64,000 nt of DNA from an uncultured Chloroflexia bacterium (lineage in GTDB: Bacteria; Chloroflexota; Anaerolineae; Anaerolineales; UBA11858), in NCBI GenBank assembly GCA_963751575.1, contig CAVVUX010000002.1, forward strand, positions 742,208 to 806,207. The letters are read 5' to 3'. Below are positions 16,771-60,097 of this stretch, one piece after another (within the stretch, counting starts at the first letter, position 1; the number at the start of each line of letters is the position of its first letter). The position numbers were made by a program, and so were the translations under genes. The notes beneath the pieces are model-generated. The model saw only the letters and a list, made by a program, of their open reading frames with translations. It was not told where the DNA came from and did not search any database.

Positions 16771-17725
16771 GATGGATAAAGTAAAAGATTTAACAACACA
16801 ATTGGTGCAGAACATAGAAAATGTCATTATTGGGAAGAGAAAGGCTGTCCAGCTGGTTGTGCTGGGATTGATATGTGAAGGCCATGTACTTATTGAAGAT
16901 GTTCCCGGGGTTGGTAAAACTATGCTGGCCAGAAGCCTTGCCCGCTCGTTGAACTGTTCTTTTAATCGCATTCAATGCACCCCGGATATGCTTCCCAGTG
17001 ATATTACCGGTGTAGATATCTACGACCAATCGACCAGTACATTCAAATTTCTCCCTGGTCCTATATTGAACCAGATAGTTTTAGCAGATGAGATCAATCG
17101 AGCTACACCAAAAACTCAATCCGCCCTGTTAGAGGCTATGGAGGAGAGGCAGGTGACGATTGGTGGTAAAACTCACTCGATCCCGGCTCCATTTATGGTG
17201 CTGGCGACCCAAAATCCTATTGAATATGAGGGGACTTTTCCTCTTCCCGAAGCTCAGCTCGACAGATTCCTGGTGAAGGTCAGTATTGGTTATCCCGGGA
17301 TCACAGAAGAGATTTCGGTCATTGAAAAACAGCAGCTGGTGCATCCGATCGATTCCGTAGATGCTGTGACTTCCGCCAAAGAGATCTTGGTGGTTCAAAA
17401 ACGTATCAAGGAGGTATTTATCGCAGATTCGATCAAGAAGTATATTGTGGAAATCACCCAGGAAACCAGGTCAGCCGATTCGGTCTATTTAGGAGCGAGC
17501 CCTCGCGGCAGCCTGGCATTGGCCAGGGCTAGCCAGGCCTGGGCAGCTATGTATGGTCGCGATTTTGTGATTCCTGATGATGTTAAATTACTTGCTGAAG
17601 CCACCTTGGGACACAGGGTGATCTTAAGCTCATCAGCAAGATTGCAGGAACTGCGAACAGGTGATTTGATCCGCGATATTCTCCGGAAAGTGCCTGTTCC
17701 GGGTGGGGATTACCGCGGTGACTAA
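16760..17725 (+). CDS. moxR: MoxR family AAA+ ATPase
   Basis: GHVLIEDVPGVGKT, RIQCTPDMLPSDITG, LADEINRATPKTQSALLEAM, ATQNPIEYEGTFPLPEAQLDRF. Confidence 0.95.
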   Translation: MEPEMDKVKDLTTQLVQNIENVIIGKRKAVQLVVLGLICEGHVLIEDVPGVGKTMLARSLARSLNCSFNRIQCTPDMLPSDITGVDIYDQSTSTFKFLPGPILNQIVLADEINRATPKTQSALLEAMEERQVTIGGKTHSIPAPFMVLATQNPIEYEGTFPLPEAQLDRFLVKVSIGYPGITEEISVIEKQQLVHPIDSVDAVTSAKEILVVQKRIKEVFIADSIKKYIVEITQETRSADSVYLGASPRGSLALARASQAWAAMYGRDFVIPDDVKLLAEATLGHRVILSSSARLQELRTGDLIRDILRKVPVPGGDYRGD

Positions 17726-17948
17726 AGATTTACGGGAATACACACAAAATACTCAAAATCGGCTGATAGGGGGATTTTTGATCCTGGTCTTTCTGGTAGG
17801 TGATGGCTTGATCTACCTGTTTTACGGACAAGGTGCTGCCTTGGTCGGCCTGGGATGCCTGGTAGGGGCATTGCTGCCTGTCGGCATCGTGGTCCTTTTT
17901 TTATGGTTGATAGATAAATCTGTCAAGAATCGAAACGATCATTCGTGA
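17718..17948 (+). CDS. Small two-helix membrane protein, hypothetical
   Basis: GTG start overlaps the moxR end; two hydrophobic segments; ends at a terminator. Confidence 0.65.
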   Translation: MTKDLREYTQNTQNRLIGGFLILVFLVGDGLIYLFYGQGAALVGLGCLVGALLPVGIVVLFLWLIDKSVKNRNDHS

Positions 17949-17990
17949 TAAAAAAAACGGGATCTCGAGTAGATCCCGTTTTTTTTATCA
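17946..17990. terminator. Bidirectional intrinsic terminator (perfect 20-bp inverted repeat)
   Basis: TGATAAAAAAAACGGGATCT-cgagt-AGATCCCGTTTTTTTTATCA; its ends are the TGA stops of both convergent genes. Confidence 0.9.
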
Positions 17991-19858
17991 GAGGGAAGCG
18001 TTAAGTATTTCGACCAGGTCCAGGACCTGGACGTTTTCAGTGAGCCCTTTTGTCCGCAGGGCATCATCGAACATGATCAAGCAGTAAGGGCAGGCGGTGG
18101 TTATGGTATCCGCTTCAATTTCAAGGGCATGATTTAATCGATTCTGGTTGATGCGGGTCTCGGCAGATGTTTCCAGCCACATCGCGCCCCCACCACCACC
18201 GCAGCAGAAGCTATTCTCCCGGTTAGATTTCATTTCGACGGGTTTTAGATCGATCTGAGAAAGGATTTTCCTTGGCTGCGCATAGACATCATGATAGCGT
18301 CCAAGGTAGCAGGAATCGTGAAAAGTAAGTTTGCCATACTTATTTTTTTCGGTTGGGTTTAAATCCATTTCATGCAATCTATCAGCCAGGAATTCAGAAG
18401 CATGGAGAACCTTAAAATTCCCACCATATCTAGGATATTCATCCCGGAAAGTGTTTAAACCGTGCGGGCAGAGGGTCACCAGAGTATTAAATGTGTATTC
18501 AGCGAAGAGTTTGATATTCTCTTCCGCAGCAACCTGGAAAAGATACTCATTGCCCATTCTGCGGGTAGTTTCTCCGCAGCACATCTCGGCATCACCCAGG
18601 ATACCGTAATCCACACCGAGTTTATTAAGGACTTCAATAAAAGCCCGGGTAACCTTTTGATTGCGATCATCAAATGAACCGGCACATCCAATATAATAGA
18701 GGACATCAACCTGATCGCCCGGATTTAGGACCCGAACATTTAAACCATCTGCCCACTTCATCCGGTTTTGTCCCGGCATGCCCCATGGATTTCCCTGGCG
18801 TTCGAAATTCCTCAATGTTTCGCCAACAGTGGCCGGAACATCCCCGGTCATCAAGACCTGGGCTCTCCTGATATCCATTACCTGTTCCGGTGGCCGGATA
18901 AATGCTGGACAAACATCAAGGCAGTGTCCGCAGGTTGTGCAGGACCATAAAAACTCATCTTTCAGAATCTCCGGATTCAGATTTCCGTTTGCTCCATCAA
19001 GGGATAGAAGCAGAGATTCAGCCATGGTTTCTCTGAGCATATACAACAAGGTTCGGGGGGAATAATTCAGTCCGCTGATCGTCGCAGGGCAGACCTGTTC
19101 ACAGCGACCACACTGAAGGCAGGCATCAAAAGCCAGTAAATTTAGTGATGAAAATTCCTTGATATGCAGTGGCGCCTAGATCTTCAGCATTCATGATATC
19201 TTCAATGGTTTCCAGTTCACCCTTCTGTCGATCGGTTTTAAGGAATATGTGGATCGGGAGTGAAGATCATATGGCGCATTTTTGTGAACGGAATGCTGGC
19301 AGCGATCAGCAGGCCAAGGCCGACATGCAGAATAAAGATATAAGGGTGGATCTCAGCAGCTTGAGTGGTCGTCAGCGCAGTATTTTGAATTAAACCCGCA
19401 GTCCAGTTTCCGATCGGAGACCAGGCAGCCCAATCAGGTTTCCTGATGAAGATGCGTAATCCTTCGGTAAAAAATCCAACTAGTGGAATTAAACCCAGCA
19501 GAACCAGGGCGTAATAGTCATCCCAGGAATTTTCCATATAATCTGGTTTGATAACCAAGCGGCGGATCAACGCCATCAGGACCCCAGCCAGAATGAATAC
19601 GCCGGCCAGATCCATGATCAGTTCATAAGCAAAATAGACATTTTCTGAGAAAAGGGGCCATGTGAAAGGGACAAATAACCCCATTTGCATGATCTTGATC
19701 GCAGTCCCTATTACCTGGATAAGAACTCCCCAGAATATCAGCAGGTGCATGATACCCGGATAGATTTTTTTTATTGTTCGAACCTGGCCCAGCGCATAGA
19801 GCAAGGTTTCTCCCAGTCTTGACCAGGGATTTGATATTCGTTTTTCAGTGGTTGTCAT
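17988..19858 (-). CDS. Membrane-bound heterodisulfide-reductase-like Fe-S oxidoreductase (NarI-type cytochrome b domain + 2x[4Fe-4S] + 2 CCG domains; HdrF/EMO/FadF-like); two frameshifts at about 19170-19260
   Basis: YPGIMHLLIFWG and EIHPYIFILHVG TM His residues, PFTKMRHM, CLQCGRCEQVCP, CTTCGHCLDVCP, YYIGC..MCCG..LCPHG, FHDSC..FCCGGGGG..ACPYC. Start ATGA overlaps the Rieske stop. Confidence 0.88.
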
Positions 19859-20292
19859 GCGGAACCTCCAATGAAAATCTCTCCATTTGTAATGGTCAGG
19901 GTGATCTTTTCCAGAGGCTGCGGTGGGGGACCAGAGATAACATCCCCCTCAAGGGGTTCAAAGTATCCTTCATGGCAGGGGCAGTGGATCTCCTGGGCAG
20001 CGCTGTCCCATTTGCAGATACAGGCAAAATGTGTGCAGACTGCAGAATAAGCTTTGATCCCTTCGGTCTGTGTGGATAACGAGGGCAGGGTAGCGCCCAA
20101 AGGGAACAGTGATGCTTTCACCGGGTGGCATGTCATCCACAGTTCCGACCCGGACGGGGTCTGATGGGACTTCTTCCAGGCTGGGGGGATAAAAATAGGC
20201 AATAAATGGTCCCAGCAAGTGCTGTCAATCCTGTAGCTGCCAGTCCCTTTTTGATCACATTGAAAAAGTCACGTCGTGGTTATTGAACTCAT
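19855..20292 (-). CDS. petC: Rieske [2Fe-2S] subunit of a Rieske/cytb complex (three single-base frameshifts)
   Basis: Reconstructed MSSITRRDFF (Tat motif) + TM, box I CTHFAC, box II CPCHEGYF, Pro loop SGPPPQPL; ATG immediately follows the subunit IV stop. Confidence 0.88.
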
Positions 20293-20690
20293 TTAGCTCA
20301 CCTCCCCCCAGATCGTCAGGGCAATAAGAACGATCATTCCAACCACTGAAATCCAGAATCTGATCCGGATGTTCTTTTTTGATTGTATCAGGTTTGTTGT
20401 CAAGGAATGGCCAGATCAATAATAGTAGAATCAGGACAACTGGAAATGTGGCCCCGATCGTTTCAGGGATATATCGCAAGAGCTGATAAAGAGACAGGAA
20501 ATACCATTCGGGTTTGATATGGTCGGGAGTATCCATTGGATCAGCTGGCGCTCCTAATCCTACAGGAGCAAATAAACCGATCACACCAATGATTATGACC
20601 AGGATACCGAAGACCAAGGCGACTTTTGCTTCAAGCGCTAGGTGATCTGGATAAAATGGGACTGACTTTTTCTGATTGATTTTCTGACAT
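20293..20690 (-). CDS. petD: Cytochrome b6f/bc subunit IV (C-terminal part of split cytochrome b); probable frameshifts near both ends
   Basis: PFYPDHL, LGAPADPMDTPDHIKPEWYFLSLYQLLRYIP (PEWY motif), WPFLD; third TM RFWISVVGMIVLIALTIWGEVS* in the adjacent frame. Confidence 0.88.
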
Positions 20691-20728
20691 AACATTACTC
20701 CCAGTTAGTGATTTCCTGATCCAACACT

Positions 20729-21689
20729 TTAGAGGGGTTTCATCATGCCTTGTTTCCTGACCATAATAAAATGCAGACCCATGGCTGCAACAGTTACCAG
20801 AGGCAGGATCAGGATATGCAGCGCGAAGAATCTGCTTAAAGTCAGACTGGTAATATTCCAGCCTGCTCGCAAGAAAACCAACGCCAATTCACCAATCACA
20901 GGTATACTGCCGGCTATTTCAGTTCCGACAGTGGTAGCCCAGTAAGCCCGCTGATCCCAGGGCAGTAAATAACCGGTGAAACCAAATGCGAGTGTCATTA
21001 TAAGCAAGCCGACGCCGGATACCCAATTTAGTTCTCTGGGGGGTTTATAGACTCCCATAATGAAAACTCTCAGCATATGAGCAATTGCCATGACGATCAT
21101 GCCATTAGCTGACCAATGATGGATCATGCGGATCGCTGATCCCAGCAGGACTTCATTTTCAATGAAATGGATGCTGGCATAAGCTTCTGCCGGGGTTGGT
21201 TTGTAATAAAAGGCCAGCATGATCCCTGTCACACCCTGGACAAGAAATAGGAAAAATGTCAATCCGCCGAGACAGTACCACCAGCGTCGCTGCCAGTCTG
21301 GAACTGGTTTAGCAAGGATTGGTTTCAGGAATTCAGATAATTCATATCGCTCATCGATCCAGGCCAGGATCCGGGTGGGTATAGGGATCCACTCAGATCT
21401 GGATCTCCAGACGCTGGCGCTGCGGGCAACACCGAACAGCAGGACAAGACCTGCTGCCCCAAAAAGGATCCAGCGACCTAACGGTGTCCACAGATTGGTG
21501 AAAGCCTCTTCGACATGGCATTGGATGCAGGTATCTTGTTCTGGTTCTGGCGGAGCAGCTTGAAAGATCTTCACTCCCGGCGAGTTCAGCTTGATTTGAT
21601 GCAGAGTAAGCGTGAACGCCAGCAGCCGTGATCAGTAGAAGGCTTAGACTGCCAATCACGATTAGGACAGTACGGAATAATTTTTTCAT
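20729..21689 (-). CDS. petB: Cytochrome b6-like protein with N-terminal signal peptide, CxxCH heme-c segment and extra TM helix (one frameshift near 21575-21610)
   Basis: Signal MKKLFRTVLIVIGSLSLLLITAAGVHA, CIQCH, TM, then WIDERY..WWYCLGG..TGIMLAFYY, IHHWSAN..AHMLRVF, PRELNW, GFTGYLLPWDQRAYWA, LSRFFALH..LHF, VRKQGMMKPL*. Confidence 0.92.
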
Positions 21690-21915
21690 AAATAACCTCG
21701 TCTACGCTGTATCCAGTGAGACTTAAATCGAGTGAATTAATGGTTTAACAGGATTGAGATTGATGTTATCCATTCAGCAAGTAATCGATTGAGAGTCCGA
21801 TAGTTATTTTGAATGTTGTCCAGGAGATACCAATTGTCCCTGACAAAATGGTTACATCAGATGGATATCTAAAAAATATAACATAATCCTGCATTTCGAG
21901 AGCATGTGTCATTCT

Positions 21916-22435
21916 TCACCCATGATTATGTACATCAGCTATCAGCGAGTTTTGAAAGGAAAAATCCTTCATGATCTGGGAGGTAACAATTGGAATTGCA
22001 GCTGCTACCGCTGGCGTGGGTGTTTCATTGAAGTCAAGGATGTTTTCAACTTCTACAGCATAGATGTGAATTCTCGGGGGATCTTATATCCCATCTGTTC
22101 TGCAGCGTCGAGCGCAGTGACCAGGGAAGTATCATGAGCGGATGTGCTGTGTTGGGTTGGGCTGAAATTGATCTCAGGTCATCCAGGGTCATTTTGTGGA
22201 TTTTTCCGGGTTTTGTGGTCTCTGGGATGCAAGATAATAGGCATCGATCAGGATCACCCGATCGTATCCGAGCATAGCTTCCATCAAACGCAGTCCTCCC
22301 GCGCTGGCTTCGGTGATTGTCAGCTCGGGATGGGCGTCAAGATCGATGATATCCTTCCAGCATTCGGGCAACTTTTACGCCGACGCCGTCGTCTGTCAGG
22401 ATTGGATTGCCCAAACCAATTATCAAGGTTTTCAT
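21916..22435 (-). CDS. Hydrogenase maturation endopeptidase (HyaD/HycI family); several frameshifts
   Basis: Manual translation MKTLIIGLGNPILTDDGVGVKVA..., EASAGGLRLMEAMLGYDRVILIDA, STSAHDTSL, AVEVENILDFNETPTPAVAAAIP; follows mvhA. Confidence 0.85.
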
Positions 22436-22445
22436 ATTATCTCAT

Positions 22446-22494
22446 AAAAAGGAAGTAACCAGTTCCAGGAATAGATGCTGGTCACTGGTTACTT
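22446..22494 (-). terminator. Terminator-like hairpin between mvhA and the maturation protease
   Basis: AAGTAACCAGT/ACTGGTTACTT 11-bp stem followed by CCTTTTT on the minus strand. Confidence 0.55.
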
Positions 22495-22526
22495 AATTCA
22501 CTTCTGATCTCTCAATTACCCATCAG

Positions 22527-24015
22527 TTAGTCAACATACTGGCTTCTGGTTTCGATCAAATTTCCCTCTGCGTCTTTGATTTGAACTTCCAGCGGCATCT
22601 GGCCCGGCAGTGAGTGAGTCGCGCAGGACATGCAGGGATCGTAATTCCTGAAAGCCATCTCGATGGTGTTGAGCAAGCCTTCGCTGACTTCACCACCTTT
22701 GATCAGCCCTTCGGCTGCTTTTTTGATCGACATCGCGATCGGGGCATTATTGTTGGTTGTTCCAACAATCAGGTTCACATCGGTCAGGATACCATTCTCG
22801 TCAGTTTTGTAGTGATGGGTCAGGGTACCCCGGGGTGCTTCAACACTGCCAACACCTTCTGTCGGCGTGTTGGTGACGACCTGCCGCACATTGGGATCAG
22901 TGATTTCAGGATCTTCTGTCAATTCAAGCATTCTTTCCGCTGCATAGAGCAGTTCAACCAGTCGAGCCCAGTGTGTTGCCAGACGGTGATGGACCGGGGT
23001 ATAACGTCCAGCTTCTTTCTTGGAACCCAGGGTCTCATAAAAACGTTCAAAATGTTCCTGGGCCTTCGGTGTTGCCATGCCATCAGAAGCGTTCAGTCGG
23101 GAAAGCGGGGTGGCACAATAGACACCGCTGTCCACACCATCTACAAATCCTTTCCAGCCCACATCTTTCAGGTAGGGGAATTTCAGGTAGGACCAGGGTT
23201 CTACTCGTTCAGCGATATGCTCGGCATAATCTTTGGCAGGATACTTGACCAGTTCTTTGCCATCTGGTCCGGTTACCCGGATCAACCCATCATAGAAATT
23301 GATGAGATTATTCTCATCCACAGTACCCATGTAGTAGGTCTGCATGGGTGAAGGCATCCGAGACGATCAGATCCACATAAGCCTGGTTGGCGAGCACGAT
23401 ATCATCAAAGAGTTTCAAACTGAAGAGGGCAAAATCAACATTTTGTTTGGCATAATCAAGAACGATTTTCTGATTCTCTTTGGTCAGTGCCTGGCTCCAT
23501 CCCCCGGGTAGTCCAGCAACAGGATGGATTCCACGACCTCCAAGCATTTTGATGACTTCGTGGTTTCTTTTCCTGCATTCAATCACCTGCTTTCCAATAT
23601 CCACACCAACTTTGTGGATAACGCCCAGGATATTCCTTTCAGCTGGATTTGAATCCGGGCCAAGAACAAAATCAGGACCACCAAGGGCATAAAAGTGGAC
23701 GGTATGGTCGGTGACATAGAAGGAGGTGTAGAATAACTCTCGGAGCTTCTTGACAACGGAAGGCGGTTCAACATCAAACAGGGCATCGAGTGCTTTGGTG
23801 GCAGCCATGTGATGGGCTTCAGGGCAAACACCGCAGATCCGGTTTGTGATGCGGGGCATTTCTTCAGCCGGCCGGCCGATCGAAAATTGTTCAAACCCCC
23901 GCAGTTCTGGAATTTGCAGATAGGCGTTTTCTACATTGCCTTTTTCATCCAGGAAGATCTCGATCTTGCCGTGGCCTTCCAGTCTGGTGATGGGATCGAT
24001 TGTTATCCGTTCCAT
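22527..24015 (-). CDS. mvhA: [NiFe]-hydrogenase large subunit, group 3c (MvhA-type); one frameshift near 23347
   Basis: IDPITRLEGHGKI, PELRGFE, L1 RICGVCPEAH, VEAPRGTLTHHY, VGTTNN, L2 YDPCMSCATH plus cleavable C-terminal extension. Confidence 0.93.
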
Positions 24016-25038
24016 TACAAATCTCCTTTTCCATTCTTGACACGTCGGAGAATTGAGTGTGCCATGCTGAAGCGGTAGAAAGTACCCGCAGGATCAGCGA
24101 TGGTATCTACAACTTCCTGGATTTTATGCTTCAAGTTCATCTTCTTCCATTGTTTCATCACCAGCATCGATGACCGAGGCAATGGCGGATAACATTTGCG
24201 CACCTTGATCGATCACTCCTTCAGGAGGACCGTAACATCCCCGGCAGCCTATTCCAACTGTTGGGCAAAGTGCTCCGCAGCCGCTCCGGGTGGCCAGGCC
24301 CATGCAGATCAAGCCTTGTTCCAGACAGACATTGATCCGGATCAGGTATCATTTCGTAGGGTCGGTAGAAACGTTCGATCGTTTTTTCGCTTTTTTCACG
24401 CTCACATTCATCGCAGACAGCTGATGTGCCAGCACCGATAATCGCTCCAGCTGGCGGTAAGGGGATCGCCTTCCAGTAAGCGCTCCAACAACAACCTGGA
24501 AAACAGCCCAGATCTGGGGCGGTTCTGGTGGACAGCCTGGCAGGTAATAATCCACATCAATCACCTGGTCGAGGGATTTTACCGTATTGTAGAAATCGGG
24601 CAGGGTCAGATCACCTTCTGCGACCTTGGTCACCTCCTGGGGGAAGATTCCATCAGGATTATCGATCGATGGATTGTCGATATATACCTTGTTAAAAGTG
24701 GCTTCTTTGGTGGTCAGATTGGAAAGGGCAGGTATACAACCTTCGTACGCGCAGGATCCATAGGCAACCATCACTTTGGATTTCTTCCGCAGCAGGTGGG
24801 CCATTTCCTCATTTTCTGAAGTCCTGATCGCGCCATTGAACAAACATACATCAATATATCCATCTGGATAGCTTTCAAGATCCTTGGTTTTGAAATCTGC
24901 AATGCAAGGGAAGAAGGCGATATCAAAGACTTCGTCCACGGTCAGGATATTCTCGTGGATATTGAGAACTGAGATCTCACATCCACCGCAGGATGCAGCC
25001 CAGTACATGGCCAGTTTTGGTTTTTCTTTTGCTCCCAT
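24015..25038 (-). CDS. mvhG: [NiFe]-hydrogenase small subunit (MvhG-type); several frameshifts in the C-terminal third
   Basis: WAASCGGCE, GSCAYEGCIP, LPGCPPEP, ICMGLATRSGCGALCP..GCRGCYG, ADPAGTFYRFS; TAATG overlap with mvhA. Confidence 0.92.
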
Positions 25039-25039
25039 G

Positions 25040-25502
25040 TCATGCCTCCTTGACGGGGATATGGTACTGATCCATTTCCGCCCAGTACTTTTTCATGCCA
25101 GCGCAGGGGCCCAAGAGCTCGAAGTTCTTCGGTCATTTTATTAACCTTTTCGGCCAGGAAAATGCCTTCAGAGGCGGATGCCCAAAGCAGCTGGACCCGT
25201 TCATCTTCAATTCCCCATTGCGTGAGAGTCTTTTTCAAAAGCAGGAAGCGTCGCAGGGCTTTGATATTTCCATTCACATAATGGCATTCACCGGGATGGC
25301 AGCCTGCGATCAATACACCATCTGCTCCTTTCAGTAGGGCCTTGAGAACAAATTGGGGATCAACTCTGCCAGAACACATCACCCGGATGGGCCTCAGATT
25401 CGGGGCATATTTGATCCGGGCTGTACCAGCCAGATCCGCTGCCCGGTAGGAGCACCAGTTGCACAGGAATCCGACAATTACAGGTTCAAATTGTTCACTC
25501 AT
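25040..25502 (-). CDS. mvhD: Hydrogenase iron-sulfur subunit MvhD ([2Fe-2S]); probable frameshift at the extreme C-terminus
   Basis: GFLCNWCSYRAADLAG, RVMCSGRVDP, GADGVLIAGCHPGECHY, WASASEG. Confidence 0.95.
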
Positions 25503-27546
25503 TTATTCCTCCTTCCCAGCCGGGACTGGTTCTAGATCCTGCACGTCCCACAATAAACCATCGATCTGGGAGAACAGCTGGATGTTGGTAAAGTGGGCGC
25601 CAGTGATGACTCCGCTGGGGCAGGCTGCAACACAGGTACCGCAACCCTGGCAGAGCGCTGTTATAACTTTGGAGATACCTTCTTCTGCGACAAATTCAAT
25701 TGCATTATAGGGACACATATTGTTGCAGATCTTGCAGCCGGAGCAGGTTTCCGCATCGATGCTGGCCCGGATCGGTTCCATCATCACCGTTCCCCGGCTG
25801 ATCAAGCTTGCGACTCTGGAAGCAGCGGCAGCACCCTGGGAAACAGTATCGGGACATCTTTTGGACCCTGGCAAGCACCGGCGATGAAGACACCATCTGT
25901 CATTGTTGCAATTGGATCCAAGTTTGGGATGTCGTTCGATGAAGAAACCTTCAAAGTCGCAGCCCATTTTGAATAGTTGGGATACTTCTTTTGAATCAGG
26001 TTGGGCTTCCATGGCCGGGCTGAGGATCACCATATCAACCGGGACTCGTCTTTGACGGCCGATCAGTGTATCTTCTACCTGGACGATCAATTTGCCTTCT
26101 TCATCAGGGATCCGGGCAGAATCTGTGATCTCTGCTACTTTTCCTCGAATGAAATTGGTACCTTCTTTCAGCAGGCGGTCATAAAACTCTTCATAACCTT
26201 TCCCGGGTGTTCGCATGTCAATATAGCAGTTGTACACTTCTGCGTCCGGAAGCCTTTCATGAACCAGGTGGGCAAATTTCAGCGAGTACATGCAGCAAAC
26301 CTTGGAGCAATATTTGTGGTAATTTTCATCTCGTGATCCAACGCAGTGAACAATGGCAACTGATTCTGGTTCAGTTTCAAAATCTCGCAGAACGATCTTG
26401 CCTTCGGTTGGGCCGGACGCATTGACCATCCTTTCAAATTCAAGGCTGGTGAAGACATTTTCCAGCTGGCCGTAGCCGTATTGGGGAATGCGCTTCACAT
26501 CAAAGAGCTCATAGCCAGTGGCCAGGATGATATTGCCAACCTGAAGCTTGAGGATCTCATCTTTCTGTTCAAAATCGATCGAGTTAGGTTCTGTCGGGCA
26601 GAATTTCTCACAGGCTTTGCATTTTCCTTTCTGGAAATAGACACAGTTTTCTCTGTCGATCACCGGAAATTTAGGCACTGCCTGGGGGAACGGCCGGTAG
26701 ATGACTTTTCGTTCTCCGAGCCCTGCTTCAAATTCATGGTCAACAACTTTGAAGGGACATTTTTCGATGCAAATCCCACAGCCTGTGCAGTGTTCTTCAT
26801 TCACATAGCGGGCTTTTTTCCGGACAGTGACATCAAAATTGCCCAATATAACCATCCATTTTTTCAACTTCACTCCAGGTCAGCAGGGTGATATTAGGAT
26901 GGTGATCAACATCGACCATTTTTGGTGTCAGGATACAGGCAGAGCAGTCCAGGGTGGGAAAGGTCTTATCGAGCTGGGCCATATGGCCGCCGATCGAAGG
27001 CTGTCTTTCAACCAGATAGACATGGTTGCCGCCGTCAGCCAGTTCCAAGTGCTGCCGTGATCCCGGCAATACCGCCCCAACGATCAGGGTATTGGGATTG
27101 ATCTCTACAGGGATTTCCTCCAGTGGTTGATGGTGAACAACTCGTTCAATAGCAGCATTTACCAGGGCTTTGGCTTTGTGGGTTGCTGCTACTTCGTCAT
27201 CGGTGGTCCAGGAATCATGTTCCCGAATATTGGCCATTTCAAACATGAACGGATTCAATCCTCCATTTTCTGTTGCAGTTCGAAAAGTGCCTTCATGCAT
27301 GTGAGGAGAGCAGGATGCAACAACGATCTTGGTTAGTCCTAGTTCCTTGATATCCTGCTCGATCAGTTCCTGCCCCAGACTGGAGCACATGAACTTATAT
27401 TCCCGGGATATCGCAACATGGGGGTTGTTCTCAGCCCATTTTGCAACATCTTCTACATCCACTACTTTGGCGATATTAGTTCCACAGTGGCAGACGTAGA
27501 CACCAACTTTCTCTTCTTGTGTTGGGGGTGATTTGGTATCATTCAT
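25503..27546 (-). CDS. hdrA: Heterodisulfide reductase subunit A (FAD, electron-bifurcating); about five single-base indels
   Basis: VGVYVCHCGTNI, VVASCSP, EMANIREHDSW, repaired IVGGGIAG, IGGHMAQLDKTFPTLDCSACILTPKM, CTGCGICIEKCP, HCVGSRD..YCSKVCCMY, repaired HPKLDP..GACQGPKD, C-terminal ferredoxin motifs. Confidence 0.95.
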
Positions 27547-27611
27547 AGGTTTTTCTCCTATCCAAAACGTCTATCGATACGTTTAATACACTGTATTCTT
27601 TGATATTAATT

Positions 27612-28525
27612 TCATGAAGACCAGGTCATAGATGTCAATTGGCCTCCTTTTGCTAATAGTTTTTTAAAGATCGGTTTTGCTGAAACCAGTTCAACACCAA
27701 AACCCAGTTTCTTGGGAGATATTCCAAGAGCGATGCCAAGCAATTGTGTGAAATAGAGGATTGGGAGATGGAATTTGGTGCCAAATTCCTCATTCACTGC
27801 ATTCTGGTAACATTCCAGATTGACCTGGCACAGTCGGACAGGCGGTGGCTATTACATCAGCCCCATTCTTCTCAGCACTCTGAAGCAGAATCCGGACCAT
27901 TTCCAATGCTGGCGCACGACTGGTCATGATCAGGGATCCCCCGCAGCAGCGCAGTCGTTCCGGAAAATGAGTAGCTTCAGCTCCTATGGCACTGATCAGT
28001 TCTTCAAAATATTGGGGATTTTCAACTTCTTCACCATGCATTCCGCGGTCTGACGATCTGGCAACCATAATAGGGTGCAATGCTTAATCCTTTGAGGGGA
28101 TTGGTTACTTGTTTCTTGATCTCTTCAGGACCGATTTCGTCTGTGCAACAAATTCATGAGATGGTGGACATCGATGTCAGCATTGATTTGCAGGTCATCT
28201 TCTTCTAGGGCAAAATTGATGTGTTCTGCCAGTTCTTGATCTTCTTTGAGAAGATTATTGGTAAAGATAGGCATTCTTATAACAGGCGCTGCAGGGAGCA
28301 ACCAGGTCCAAGCCTTCTTTTTCTGCCAGTGGCAAGGTTCCTCGAAACCAGTGTGTAGGCAAGAAGCTGATCTACATGGAAGTATGTTGTTGCTCCACAG
28401 CAGTTCCAGTCATCCAATTCCTGGAGTTCAATATCAAATTTACGGGTTGTTTCCAGTGTCGATTTATGATAACTGGAGGCCATTTTCTCTAGGGAGCAAC
28501 CGGGGAAATAGGCGAATTTTTTCAT
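27612..28525 (-). CDS. hdrB: Heterodisulfide reductase subunit B (two CCG domains); multiple frameshifts
   Basis: YFPGCSL, DWNCCGA, repaired APCSACY, PYYGCQIVRP, RCCGGS, TACP, LPILYFTQLLGIALG. Confidence 0.92.
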
Positions 28526-29087
28526 GATGATTCTCCTAGAGGAATGATCCTGCGGATCATATTCTTAAAATTTTCCAGGCGTTTGATGCGGGGAGGCAAG
28601 AACAGGTATTTTGCCTTTCAGCACCATTTTGCTGGCATTGAATGCTTCCTGGAAAAATTCTTTGGGTCCCATCTGGAACATGTAGGTTGGCGCCAGGATC
28701 GGTTCATAGGATCGGCCACTCCGGATGATCATTTTCACCCAGGCTTCAGAGAAGGTCGGGCCAACCAGATCATCCGCGTAGGTCTTGTTCCAGATCGAAT
28801 AACGTTTGACTGCATACATGACACCGGCGATGTCGATATCTGCTGGACAGCGTACCGTGCAGTGATAGCAGGATGCGCAGAACCAGTAGGTATTGCAATC
28901 CAAAACGTCATCTTTTAGATCAGCATTGATCATTCCGATCAATCTGCGAGGTGTTTGATCCATGTAATCGGCTACCGGGCAGGTGCCAGAACATGAGCCG
29001 CATTGGATACAGGCATTGATCGGGCTTCCATGCGCAGCGTAGAGAAGGTTAGAAATCTCAGTCGCTGAATGATGGCTTTGATGCCAT
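28522..29087 (-). CDS. hdrC: Heterodisulfide reductase subunit C (2x[4Fe-4S]); two frameshifts
   Basis: CIQCGSCSGTCP, MDQTPRR, WFCASCYHCTVRCP; the repaired C-terminus ends in an ATGA overlap with hdrB. Confidence 0.92.
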
Positions 29088-29124
29088 AAGCTTCTTCCTC
29101 CTTGTTTAATCTGATTTCTTCTCT

Positions 29125-58676: not shown

Positions 58677-60097
<1,421 letters not shown>

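Follow-up and report, generated by a model that had tools for sequence, protein, structure and literature searches.

Rieske/cytochrome b complexes are usually taken to pass their high-potential electron to a periplasmic carrier. The b6f complexes and the b6c-type complexes of Firmicutes combine a split cytochrome b with a CxGG motif, a PEWY motif and a twin-arginine Rieske protein with cytochrome f/c1 or a class I domain on subunit IV. Other described partners of Rieske/cytochrome b include multihaem cytochromes, C-terminal class I domains and NAD(P)-binding subunits (PMC6037941, PMC5317091, PMC4122944, PMC5600118). Here we analyse a 64,000-nucleotide stretch of DNA from an uncultured Chloroflexia bacterium of the order Anaerolineales (hereafter the window), in which the genes for a split b6-type cytochrome b (petB and petD) and a Rieske protein are followed by the gene for a membrane oxidoreductase of the EMO/EtfD family (ETF:menaquinone oxidoreductases), named EMO-2. 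The operon shares its split cytochrome b, CxGG, PEWY and twin-arginine Rieske protein with the b6f and b6c-type complexes, but instead of cytochrome f/c1 or a class I domain on subunit IV it has a bare CxxCH motif and an extra membrane helix ahead of PetB.

The Rieske/cytochrome b operons of the anammox bacterium Kuenenia likewise include a cytoplasmic oxidoreductase (PMC5600118, PMC12954380). There, the oxidoreductase binds NAD(P) and is an Fe-S protein devoid of a membrane haem wire, and the complexes have c-type cytochrome subunits and Rieske potentials of +303 and +335 mV. EMO-2 itself resembles EtfD of Mycobacterium smegmatis (PDB: 9OJN; PMC13083937), in which a NarI-type haem-b domain, two cubane clusters and two CCG domains are joined in one chain. 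EtfD stands alone and contains one haem, whereas EMO-2 belongs to a Rieske/b6 operon and is without helix I. The first CCG motif of EMO-2 retains its two cysteines, and position 132 is Glu, compared with Arg in EtfD. EMO-2 shares with the EMO of Syntrophus aciditrophicus (SaEMO; bioRxiv 10.64898/2026.08.18.745454) the spacing of the outer-haem residues and, in 23 of 53 sequences including that of the window, the His-Gly pair of the second non-cubane cluster. There are five helices in SaEMO, with the proton donors E22 and H109 at an outer methyl-menaquinone site, whereas EMO-2 has neither helix I nor an acid or His at the H109 position and is tied to the Rieske/b6 operon. The heterodisulfide reductase HdrDE has the same domain set, most of whose CCG cysteines are kept in EMO-2, but EMO-2 is a single chain with a thiol site blocked by His465, and its nearest solved sequence is EtfD. 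The four-gene operon is undescribed in the full texts covered by a literature search; Agne 2021, ten Brink 2013, Dibrova 2013 and the supplements of the SaEMO preprint, which could mention the clade, lay outside its scope.

The four-gene operon and its PetB extension

The operon occupies positions 17988-21689 on the minus strand, and its open reading frames and Pfam matches give the order petB, petD, Rieske and oxidoreductase, as the first-pass annotation of this DNA had read it. The gene petB (20729..21689; Pfam Cytochrome_B, E 1e-50) encodes the split b6-type cytochrome b with an N-terminal extension and contains one frameshift near 21570. It is followed by petD, encoding subunit IV (20293..20690; Pfam Cytochrom_B_C, E 4e-14; two frameshifts), by the gene for a Rieske [2Fe-2S] protein with a twin-arginine motif (19855..20292; Pfam Rieske; three frameshifts), and by EMO-2 (17988..19858; Pfam and 9OJN matches; two frameshifts). 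The junctions are as tight as had been claimed: the Rieske ATG comes immediately after the petD TAA, and the oxidoreductase ATG shares the letters ATGA with the Rieske TGA. The eight frameshift sites lie at ~21570, 20680-20663, 20384, 20279, 20220, 20066, 19258 and 19165, and in comparison with seven orthologues seven of them amount to one surplus base in the window, the site in the petB linker being less clean. Because the orthologous operon genes are mostly intact and the window also has atpD, hdrA and mvhA in split form, sequence comparison suggests that the frameshifts are most likely assembly errors. The atpD gene, spread over two frames at 58683-60003, is one sign of such indel errors.

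The operon was compared across 149 loci from genomes and metagenomes, of which 98 form a non-redundant set after the removal of near-copies at 97% identity. The PetB extension is present in 139 of the 149, and petD, Rieske and oxidoreductase follow in order in all 109 loci with at least 1300 bases downstream. The ten loci that lack the extension comprise three cut at the petB start, two fetched for their EMO only and five with a paralogous petB. Of the non-redundant Anaerolineales-type loci, all that extend far enough (79/79) have the four-gene order, so the search for the same order elsewhere was successful and the genes are inherited together. The concern that homologous operons might do without the oxidoreductase applies to the paralogous petB operons, where it follows in none of five (four of which had room), and not to the orthologues. 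At one locus (L048/L204, genome G011), about 1 kb separates petB from petD at a contig end, and Rieske and EMO-2 are found together on another contig.

The Rieske/b6 core looks functional, because its cofactor and export motifs are all kept. The four b-haem histidines of PetB (alignment positions 143, 157, 244 and 259) are present in 60-61 of 61 orthologues, and the CLGG motif for haem ci (cn) at 21263..21274 on the minus strand in 61/61, CxGG having been defined as the haem ci motif in PMC5600118. The Qo motif PEWY of petD, at 20512-20501 in the window, is found in 60 of 61 sequences and replaced by AHWY in the remaining one. The Rieske ligand boxes CTHFxC and CPCH are invariant (43/43), and the twin-arginine motif RRxF occurs in 42/43. 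The operon has the cytochrome b with four haem-b histidines, Qo subunit IV, exported Rieske protein and CxGG motif of a split b6-type Rieske/cytochrome b complex; as for a folded c-type cytochrome (c1, f or class I) to accept the Rieske electron, it has a bare CxxCH only. Two further Rieske/cytochrome b operons are present in the genome (L001, G000:C2:248.7-251.1 kb; L003, G000:C3:966.6-969.7 kb). One has two CxxCH motifs on a PetD-like frame, and in the other a long cytochrome b with a haem c region at its N-terminus precedes a dihaem protein; in both, the CxxCH motifs lie within longer soluble regions.

The potential of the yeast Rieske protein is about +285 mV. The Ser and Tyr residues that raise the potential are replaced by Gly and Phe in the Rieske protein of the operon (GxF in 43/43 and 61/61 sequences). 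Changes of the Ser and the Tyr in yeast lower the potential by ~130 and ~65 mV, respectively, and one anammox protein defied the rule (PMC12954380). Set against the yeast value, these shifts lead to an estimate near +90 mV for the Rieske protein of the operon.

The N-terminus of PetB consists of a predicted signal peptide, a variable proline-rich linker, a CxxCH motif and an extra membrane helix (TM0), followed by the b6 core. The predicted Sec signal peptide (21609..21689, minus strand), read from the sequence and the alignment, has a basic N-region, a hydrophobic core and an AxA-type end. The CxxCH haem-c attachment motif (21515..21529, minus strand) has no cytochrome c domain around it and precedes TM0 (21407..21490, minus strand; model helix 22-51) by nine residues. 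In the window, the motif is masked by the frameshift that separates it from the signal peptide; it is invariant in 61/61 complete non-redundant orthologues and in 39/39 sequences of a smaller set. Intact PetB orthologues have ~320-370 residues, and the b6 core begins at position 60 of the mature-PetB profile, whose best solved matches are cytochromes b6 (E 2e-74). An AlphaFold2 model of mature PetB alone is poor (predicted local distance difference test score, pLDDT, 51) and shows only that TM0 is a helix. The genome has CcmF- and CcmC-sized PF01578 genes, and a haem c is predicted to be attached at the CxxCH of PetB. The statement that there is no cytochrome c is correct for a separate gene in the operon, but PetB carries a putative stand-in for cytochrome c1/f. 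Twelve other CxxCH-bearing frames in the 98 non-redundant loci were read as Fe-S, thioredoxin-like or spurious, and none as cytochrome c-like.

A search of 1.84 billion proteins with a profile of the PetB extension returned 44 representatives, 42 of which have the CxxCH-TM0 module; none of the 44 is a natural fusion of CxxCH-TM0 to an EMO. In the ESM Atlas, the PetB extension matched only multihaem look-alikes scoring below 0.9. Among four of the proteins (P0261, P0270, P0274 and P0272), three consist of a signal peptide, CxxCH and TM0 on a shortened, degenerate cytochrome b, and one is a PetB-PetD fusion with the same extension.

The missing helix of EMO-2 and the extra helix of PetB

Orthologues of EMO-2 are read in one frame of 623 residues and combine a four-helix NarI-type haem-b domain, two cubane [4Fe-4S] clusters and two CCG domains in a single chain. 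The closest solved structure by sequence is EtfD (E 3.6e-92), and chains of HdrB/C match at E 1e-4 to 1e-3. The model of EMO-2, of middling confidence (pLDDT 66) and with four long helices, is similar to the EtfD fold (Foldseek E 8e-25; VIA Z 30.3, root mean square deviation 14.3 Å over 493 residues, with a chain range from residue 45). Residues H38, H196, H178 and H465 align with His78, His241, His223 and His583 of EtfD, and the first three include the two ligands of the inner haem b and the third, outer histidine that mark members of the EMO family. His465 lies in a CPHG motif (18459..18470, minus strand) and, from the alignment to 9OJN and the preprint text, is the equivalent of EtfD His583 and SaEMO His534. 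In both solved EMOs, this histidine fills the thiol-binding site of Hdr (bioRxiv 10.64898/2026.08.18.745454; PMC13083937).

By sequence, EMO-2 is a member of the EMO/EtfD family and not a heterodisulfide reductase, and the earlier label "Hdr-like" fits its fold but not its family. The blocking histidine is kept in all 53 EMO-2 sequences that are long enough, and disulfide reductase activity is therefore unlikely. An assignment to HdrDE was rejected, since the open thiol site is absent and, in the alignment to EtfD His583, His465 fills it. The matches listed for the NCBIfam models of Hdr, DsrK, TmcB, HmcF and TfrB were all far below cut-off, and no HdrD/HdrE or EMO model was among the 25/33 families listed. 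A tree of 29 EMO-2 and 26 other EMO rows separates the two groups by a branch with 100/100 support.

The five membrane helices that both solved EMOs have in one chain (bioRxiv 10.64898/2026.08.18.745454) are not all present in EMO-2. A hydrophobic helix ahead of the first haem histidine is found in 108/117 relatives of EMO-1, an ordinary five-helix EMO encoded further upstream in the window, in 19/21 outgroup EMOs, and in 0/117 EMO-2 proteins (117 of 120 could be parsed). An ordinary EMO aligns with EtfD from residue 2, as against the start of the structural match of EMO-2 at residue 45. On this sequence evidence we file EMO-2 as a truncated EMO-family subunit and not as a canonical EMO. The TM0 of PetB resembles the missing helix. 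Compared with helix I in a broad EMO profile, it gives an HHalign probability of 77% and E 1.9e-5 over 33 ungapped columns, a match that none of 100 column shuffles equalled and that ranks third of 4144 domain hits among 5824 frames of the genome; the predicted topology of TM0 is outside-to-inside, the same as that of EMO helix I. The case for homology between TM0 and helix I is moderate, and TM0 likely takes over the position that helix I would have in EMO-2.

Because EMO-2 has lost helix I and PetB has a matching extra helix, it is likely that PetB, PetD, the Rieske protein and EMO-2 form one membrane complex. Such a layout would be expected had petB, petD and the Rieske gene been inserted into an emo gene behind its helix I. 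Alternatively, the operon could encode two separate co-transcribed enzymes that meet through the quinone pool, with EMO-2 working with four helices and TM0 merely anchoring the haem c. Co-inheritance and translational coupling are possible without physical contact, the homology of TM0 is moderate, and three database proteins keep the CxxCH-TM0 module on a degenerate cytochrome b. This arrangement is nevertheless unlikely, as in each of the complete loci examined EMO-2 is without helix I and PetB has the look-alike helix, and the solved EMOs both have five helices. The distances among PetB and among EMO-2 sequences correlate (r 0.93), which speaks for shared descent and not for contact. Inter-chain covariation over 61 paired loci (effective number of sequences 32-49) gave 40 pairs with z>4 per 10,000 for TM0-EMO, 33 for Rieske-EMO and 4 for the true PetB-PetD contact, so phylogenetic noise dominates and the test has no power.

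The residues of the outer haem site are kept in EMO-2 (T52 in 60/61, E132 in 61/61 and H178 in 60/61 sequences), and several positions around it have changed. Asp is absent at positions 58 and 60 in the 20 EMO-2 sequences sampled, compared with Asp at both in 17/21 outgroups; position 60 corresponds to the proton donor H109 of SaEMO. Relative to the 21 outgroups, EMO-2 has gained Q48, M59 (Tyr/Phe in 14/61) and M82. Gln48 occurs in 41/41 and 34/34 EMO-2 sequences, its count in the 61-locus set being given by construction, as the filter for that set required it. Position 45, which matches the quinone-site Phe85 of EtfD, is Val, compared with Met/Phe in the five outgroup rows listed. The loss of the acids and the gain of Q48, M59 and M82 are as expected if a quinone site had turned into a haem-c site. 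Since the start of helix I (E22) of SaEMO lines the pocket over the outer haems (bioRxiv 10.64898/2026.08.18.745454) and the CxxCH is only nine residues away from TM0, the simplest reading is that the haem c of PetB caps or occupies the outer site of EMO-2, maybe with Met82 as the sixth ligand.

The position of these changes bears on another arrangement, in which EMO-2 would couple on the cytoplasmic side to haem ci/bH. It would then feed or drain the Q-cycle at its low-potential arm, a role already suggested for NAD(P)-linked subunits in anammox complexes. The invariant CLGG motif, the direct run of TM0 into the b6 N-terminus near the haem ci site, and an FrhB/FdhB-like Fe-S gene that follows EMO-2 in 39/67 non-redundant loci with room for it (for example L089:10657-11724) agree with such a coupling, and cytoplasmic oxidoreductases on Rieske/cytochrome b complexes exist (PMC5600118). 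The EMO-2-specific changes, however, cluster at the outer and not the inner end, and we consider this coupling very unlikely.

Routes and direction of electron flow

Menaquinone has a potential of -80 mV and CoM-S-S-CoB of -143 mV (PMC4683180), and the ETF/butyryl-CoA couple is at ~-10 mV (bioRxiv 10.64898/2026.08.18.745454). For every two electrons, a forward Q-cycle combined with an inward wire carries four charges across the membrane, and its balance needs a gap of twice the proton-motive force. With a force of 100-150 mV assumed, the calculation shows that inward flow requires a cytoplasmic acceptor at ~+120 to +220 mV. ETF and CoM-S-S-CoB are too low as acceptors, so a wired complex working with ETF would run outward. 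The first-pass annotation had proposed a quinol:disulfide or quinol:Etf oxidoreductase; the former is made unlikely by the blocking histidine and by the potential of CoM-S-S-CoB, and the direction of the latter is unlikely given the potential of ETF/butyryl-CoA. Inward flow, in which quinol would be oxidised by a forward Q-cycle and the Rieske electron carried via haem c to ETF, enoyl-CoA or a disulfide, shares the structural arguments for a direct wire. A Rieske protein without both potential-raising residues would suit an acceptor of lower potential, and Mvh/Hdr genes lie upstream of the operon in 29/73 non-redundant loci. Against it stand the required acceptor potential and the histidine in the thiol site; in addition, a radical SAM enzyme that forms methyl-menaquinone was not recognised in the 15 frames scanned with a library that may be without a model for it. 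We regard inward flow as quite improbable and its disulfide version as scarcely credible.

We tentatively favour a direct wire with outward flow, in which the haem c of PetB would be at the outer haem site of EMO-2 and double as the Rieske partner in place of cytochrome c1/f. Electrons would enter in the cytoplasm from ETF reduced by acyl-CoA oxidation (~-10 mV) and pass through the four Fe-S clusters to the inner haem b, the outer haem site and the haem c. From there they would reach the Rieske cluster and a reverse Q-cycle, driven by the proton-motive force, that would reduce menaquinone with up to four charges per two electrons; alternatively, they might leave the haem c for a periplasmic cytochrome, provided that the haem is accessible to one. 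In favour of the direct wire, the CxxCH has no surrounding fold and the operon is not accompanied by a gene for a cytochrome c partner. The earlier suggestion that a NarI-type haem wire is tied to the Rieske centre remains plausible and the wire is probably in the same complex, but the route would lead through the haem c of PetB, which had been missed. A fuller version of the direct wire is doubtful: the insertion of a petB-petD-Rieske cassette into an emo gene after its first helix would have produced a Q-cycle enzyme with its high-potential arm wired back through Rieske, bare haem c, EMO haems and Fe-S clusters to ETF. Such an enzyme would need no periplasmic partner; it would link a cytoplasmic couple with menaquinone and, with four charges for every two electrons, would run in a higher gear than any redox loop described so far.

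The gene context agrees with ETF as the electron donor. In the window, the etfBA genes lie 13-15 kb upstream of the operon, and in two other loci (L047 and L048) the distance is ~3 kb or less. The genome of the window has six acyl-CoA dehydrogenase matches. Genes for 2-oxoacid dehydrogenase E1/E2/E3, a source of acyl-CoA, flank the operon in 8-9 loci (L052, L085, L088, L089, L177 and L188 among them).

A number of observations weigh against the direct wire. A reverse Q-cycle would cost about twice what SaEMO needs to move electrons from ETF to quinone. The similarity of TM0 to helix I fell to an HHalign probability of 42% with a narrower EMO-1 set, in genome-wide rankings neither helix stood out with the profile of the other, and the PetB of the window itself matched the broad helix profile at only E 0.16. 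Residues T52, E132 and H178 are spaced from the haem histidines as are A101, E187 and H233 of SaEMO, an equivalence given by spacing and not by alignment. EtfD of M. smegmatis keeps the equivalent of H178 without an outer haem, so the presence of a haem at this site of EMO-2 is unproved (bioRxiv 10.64898/2026.08.18.745454). H171 was ruled out as a haem-c-specific ligand because it is present in 19/21 outgroups. ETF alpha occurs in 40/41 relatives, which is weak evidence given that the protein is near-universal, and the operon is without etf genes of its own in 71/73 loci. Furthermore, in the 31 genomes of the window's genus, searched for the menaquinone head-group pathway, MenD was over cut-off in 0/31 and MqnA/D was found in 0/31. 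Of the menaquinone genes, only menA and a menG-like gene were found in the genome of the window, which also encodes several quinone-linked complexes. On this gene content, the quinone used by the operon is uncertain, and its head group may be taken up from outside or synthesised in a different way.

A model in which the parts of the same complex work in series is possible as well, and close to the direct wire in probability, if somewhat below it. Like EtfD, EMO-2 would reduce menaquinone near its inner haem b, the Rieske/b6 core would reoxidise it in a forward Q-cycle, and the haem c would pass electrons to periplasmic cytochromes; the whole would be an ETF:cytochrome c oxidoreductase supercomplex that generates a proton-motive force. 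This is energetically the simplest solution, and it parallels both the path from EtfD through menaquinone to cytochrome bcc (PMC13083937) and the association of ETFDH with complex III (PMC10896730). The Qo motif, the four b-haem histidines and the haem ci motif are intact, the loss of the outer proton donors would prevent a wasteful reverse loop, and there are many multihaem cytochrome frames in the genome. Val at position 45 of EMO-2 can also be counted in its favour. However, TM0 in the place of helix I would bring the haem c near the EMO haem chain and may thus short-circuit the quinone, and a bare haem peptide would be a poor dock for a soluble partner, in contrast to the motifs of the paralogous operons in their longer soluble regions. 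In addition, a search of the genome, which is 84% complete, did not find a haem-copper oxidase subunit I.

Neighbouring genes, distribution and implications

The operon is preceded by a co-directional cluster of redox genes on the minus strand (37653-21915). It begins with a soluble HdrD-like Fe-S protein (37653-36448), etfB (36436-35669), etfA (35715-34690) and EMO-1 (34661-32670), continues with a histidine kinase and response regulators, and ends with hdrC-hdrB-hdrA-mvhD-mvhG-mvhA and a likely hydrogenase maturation protease (21915..29100, approximate ends). The hdr and mvh genes were identified with Pfam and NCBIfam, and the protease, which has no family match, was named by reading. The ETF genes are below the curated cut-offs of the NCBIfam models listed, and PF00766 is over its cut-off. 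The part of the cluster comprising the soluble Fe-S protein, etfBA, EMO and hdrA recurs in other orders of Anaerolineae (L129, L130 and L145). In EMO-1 and its clade, Asp replaces several CCG cysteines (TDPH compared with xCPH), and the non-cubane clusters may differ from those of both solved EMOs. An FrhB/FdhB-like fifth gene is absent after EMO-2 in the window, and it has no match in the window's genome; where they occur, either the Mvh/Hdr genes upstream or the FrhB/FdhB-like gene downstream could mark another partner. A haem o synthase over cut-off is located near two multihaem cytochrome genes elsewhere in the genome (L165, G000:C3:835787-836698).

The gap upstream of petB (21690-21914) is AT-rich, as had been noted (64% compared with 53% across the window), but the promoter it was suggested to hold did not stand out: the region 17700-22600 contains 5 promoter-like sites compared with 8.1 in shuffles, and a sigma-70-like site in the gap (21912-21883, 9/12) is not above chance. 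At the other end of the operon, an A/T-flanked hairpin between EMO-2 and the convergent gene (17946..17992; -28.4 kcal/mol, z -8.7, 0/200 shuffles) is likely a bidirectional terminator.

Orthologues of the operon occur in 42/201 sampled Anaerolineales genomes, mostly from three families. The CxxCH-TM0 extension was found in 0/150 genomes sampled across the class, mostly from other orders, with at most 43 candidates scored per genome. Among 47 named records, 45 are labelled as Chloroflexota lineages, and the two labelled otherwise fall inside the clade in the tree.

Members of the Anaerolineales are often described as fermenters. If the direct wire is correct, complex III would here have a new layout, with an EMO wire bolted onto a Rieske/cytochrome b core by a minimal haem peptide and a donated helix. 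This layout would also give the electrons of ETF, which are too positive for the easy reduction of menaquinone, a new route.

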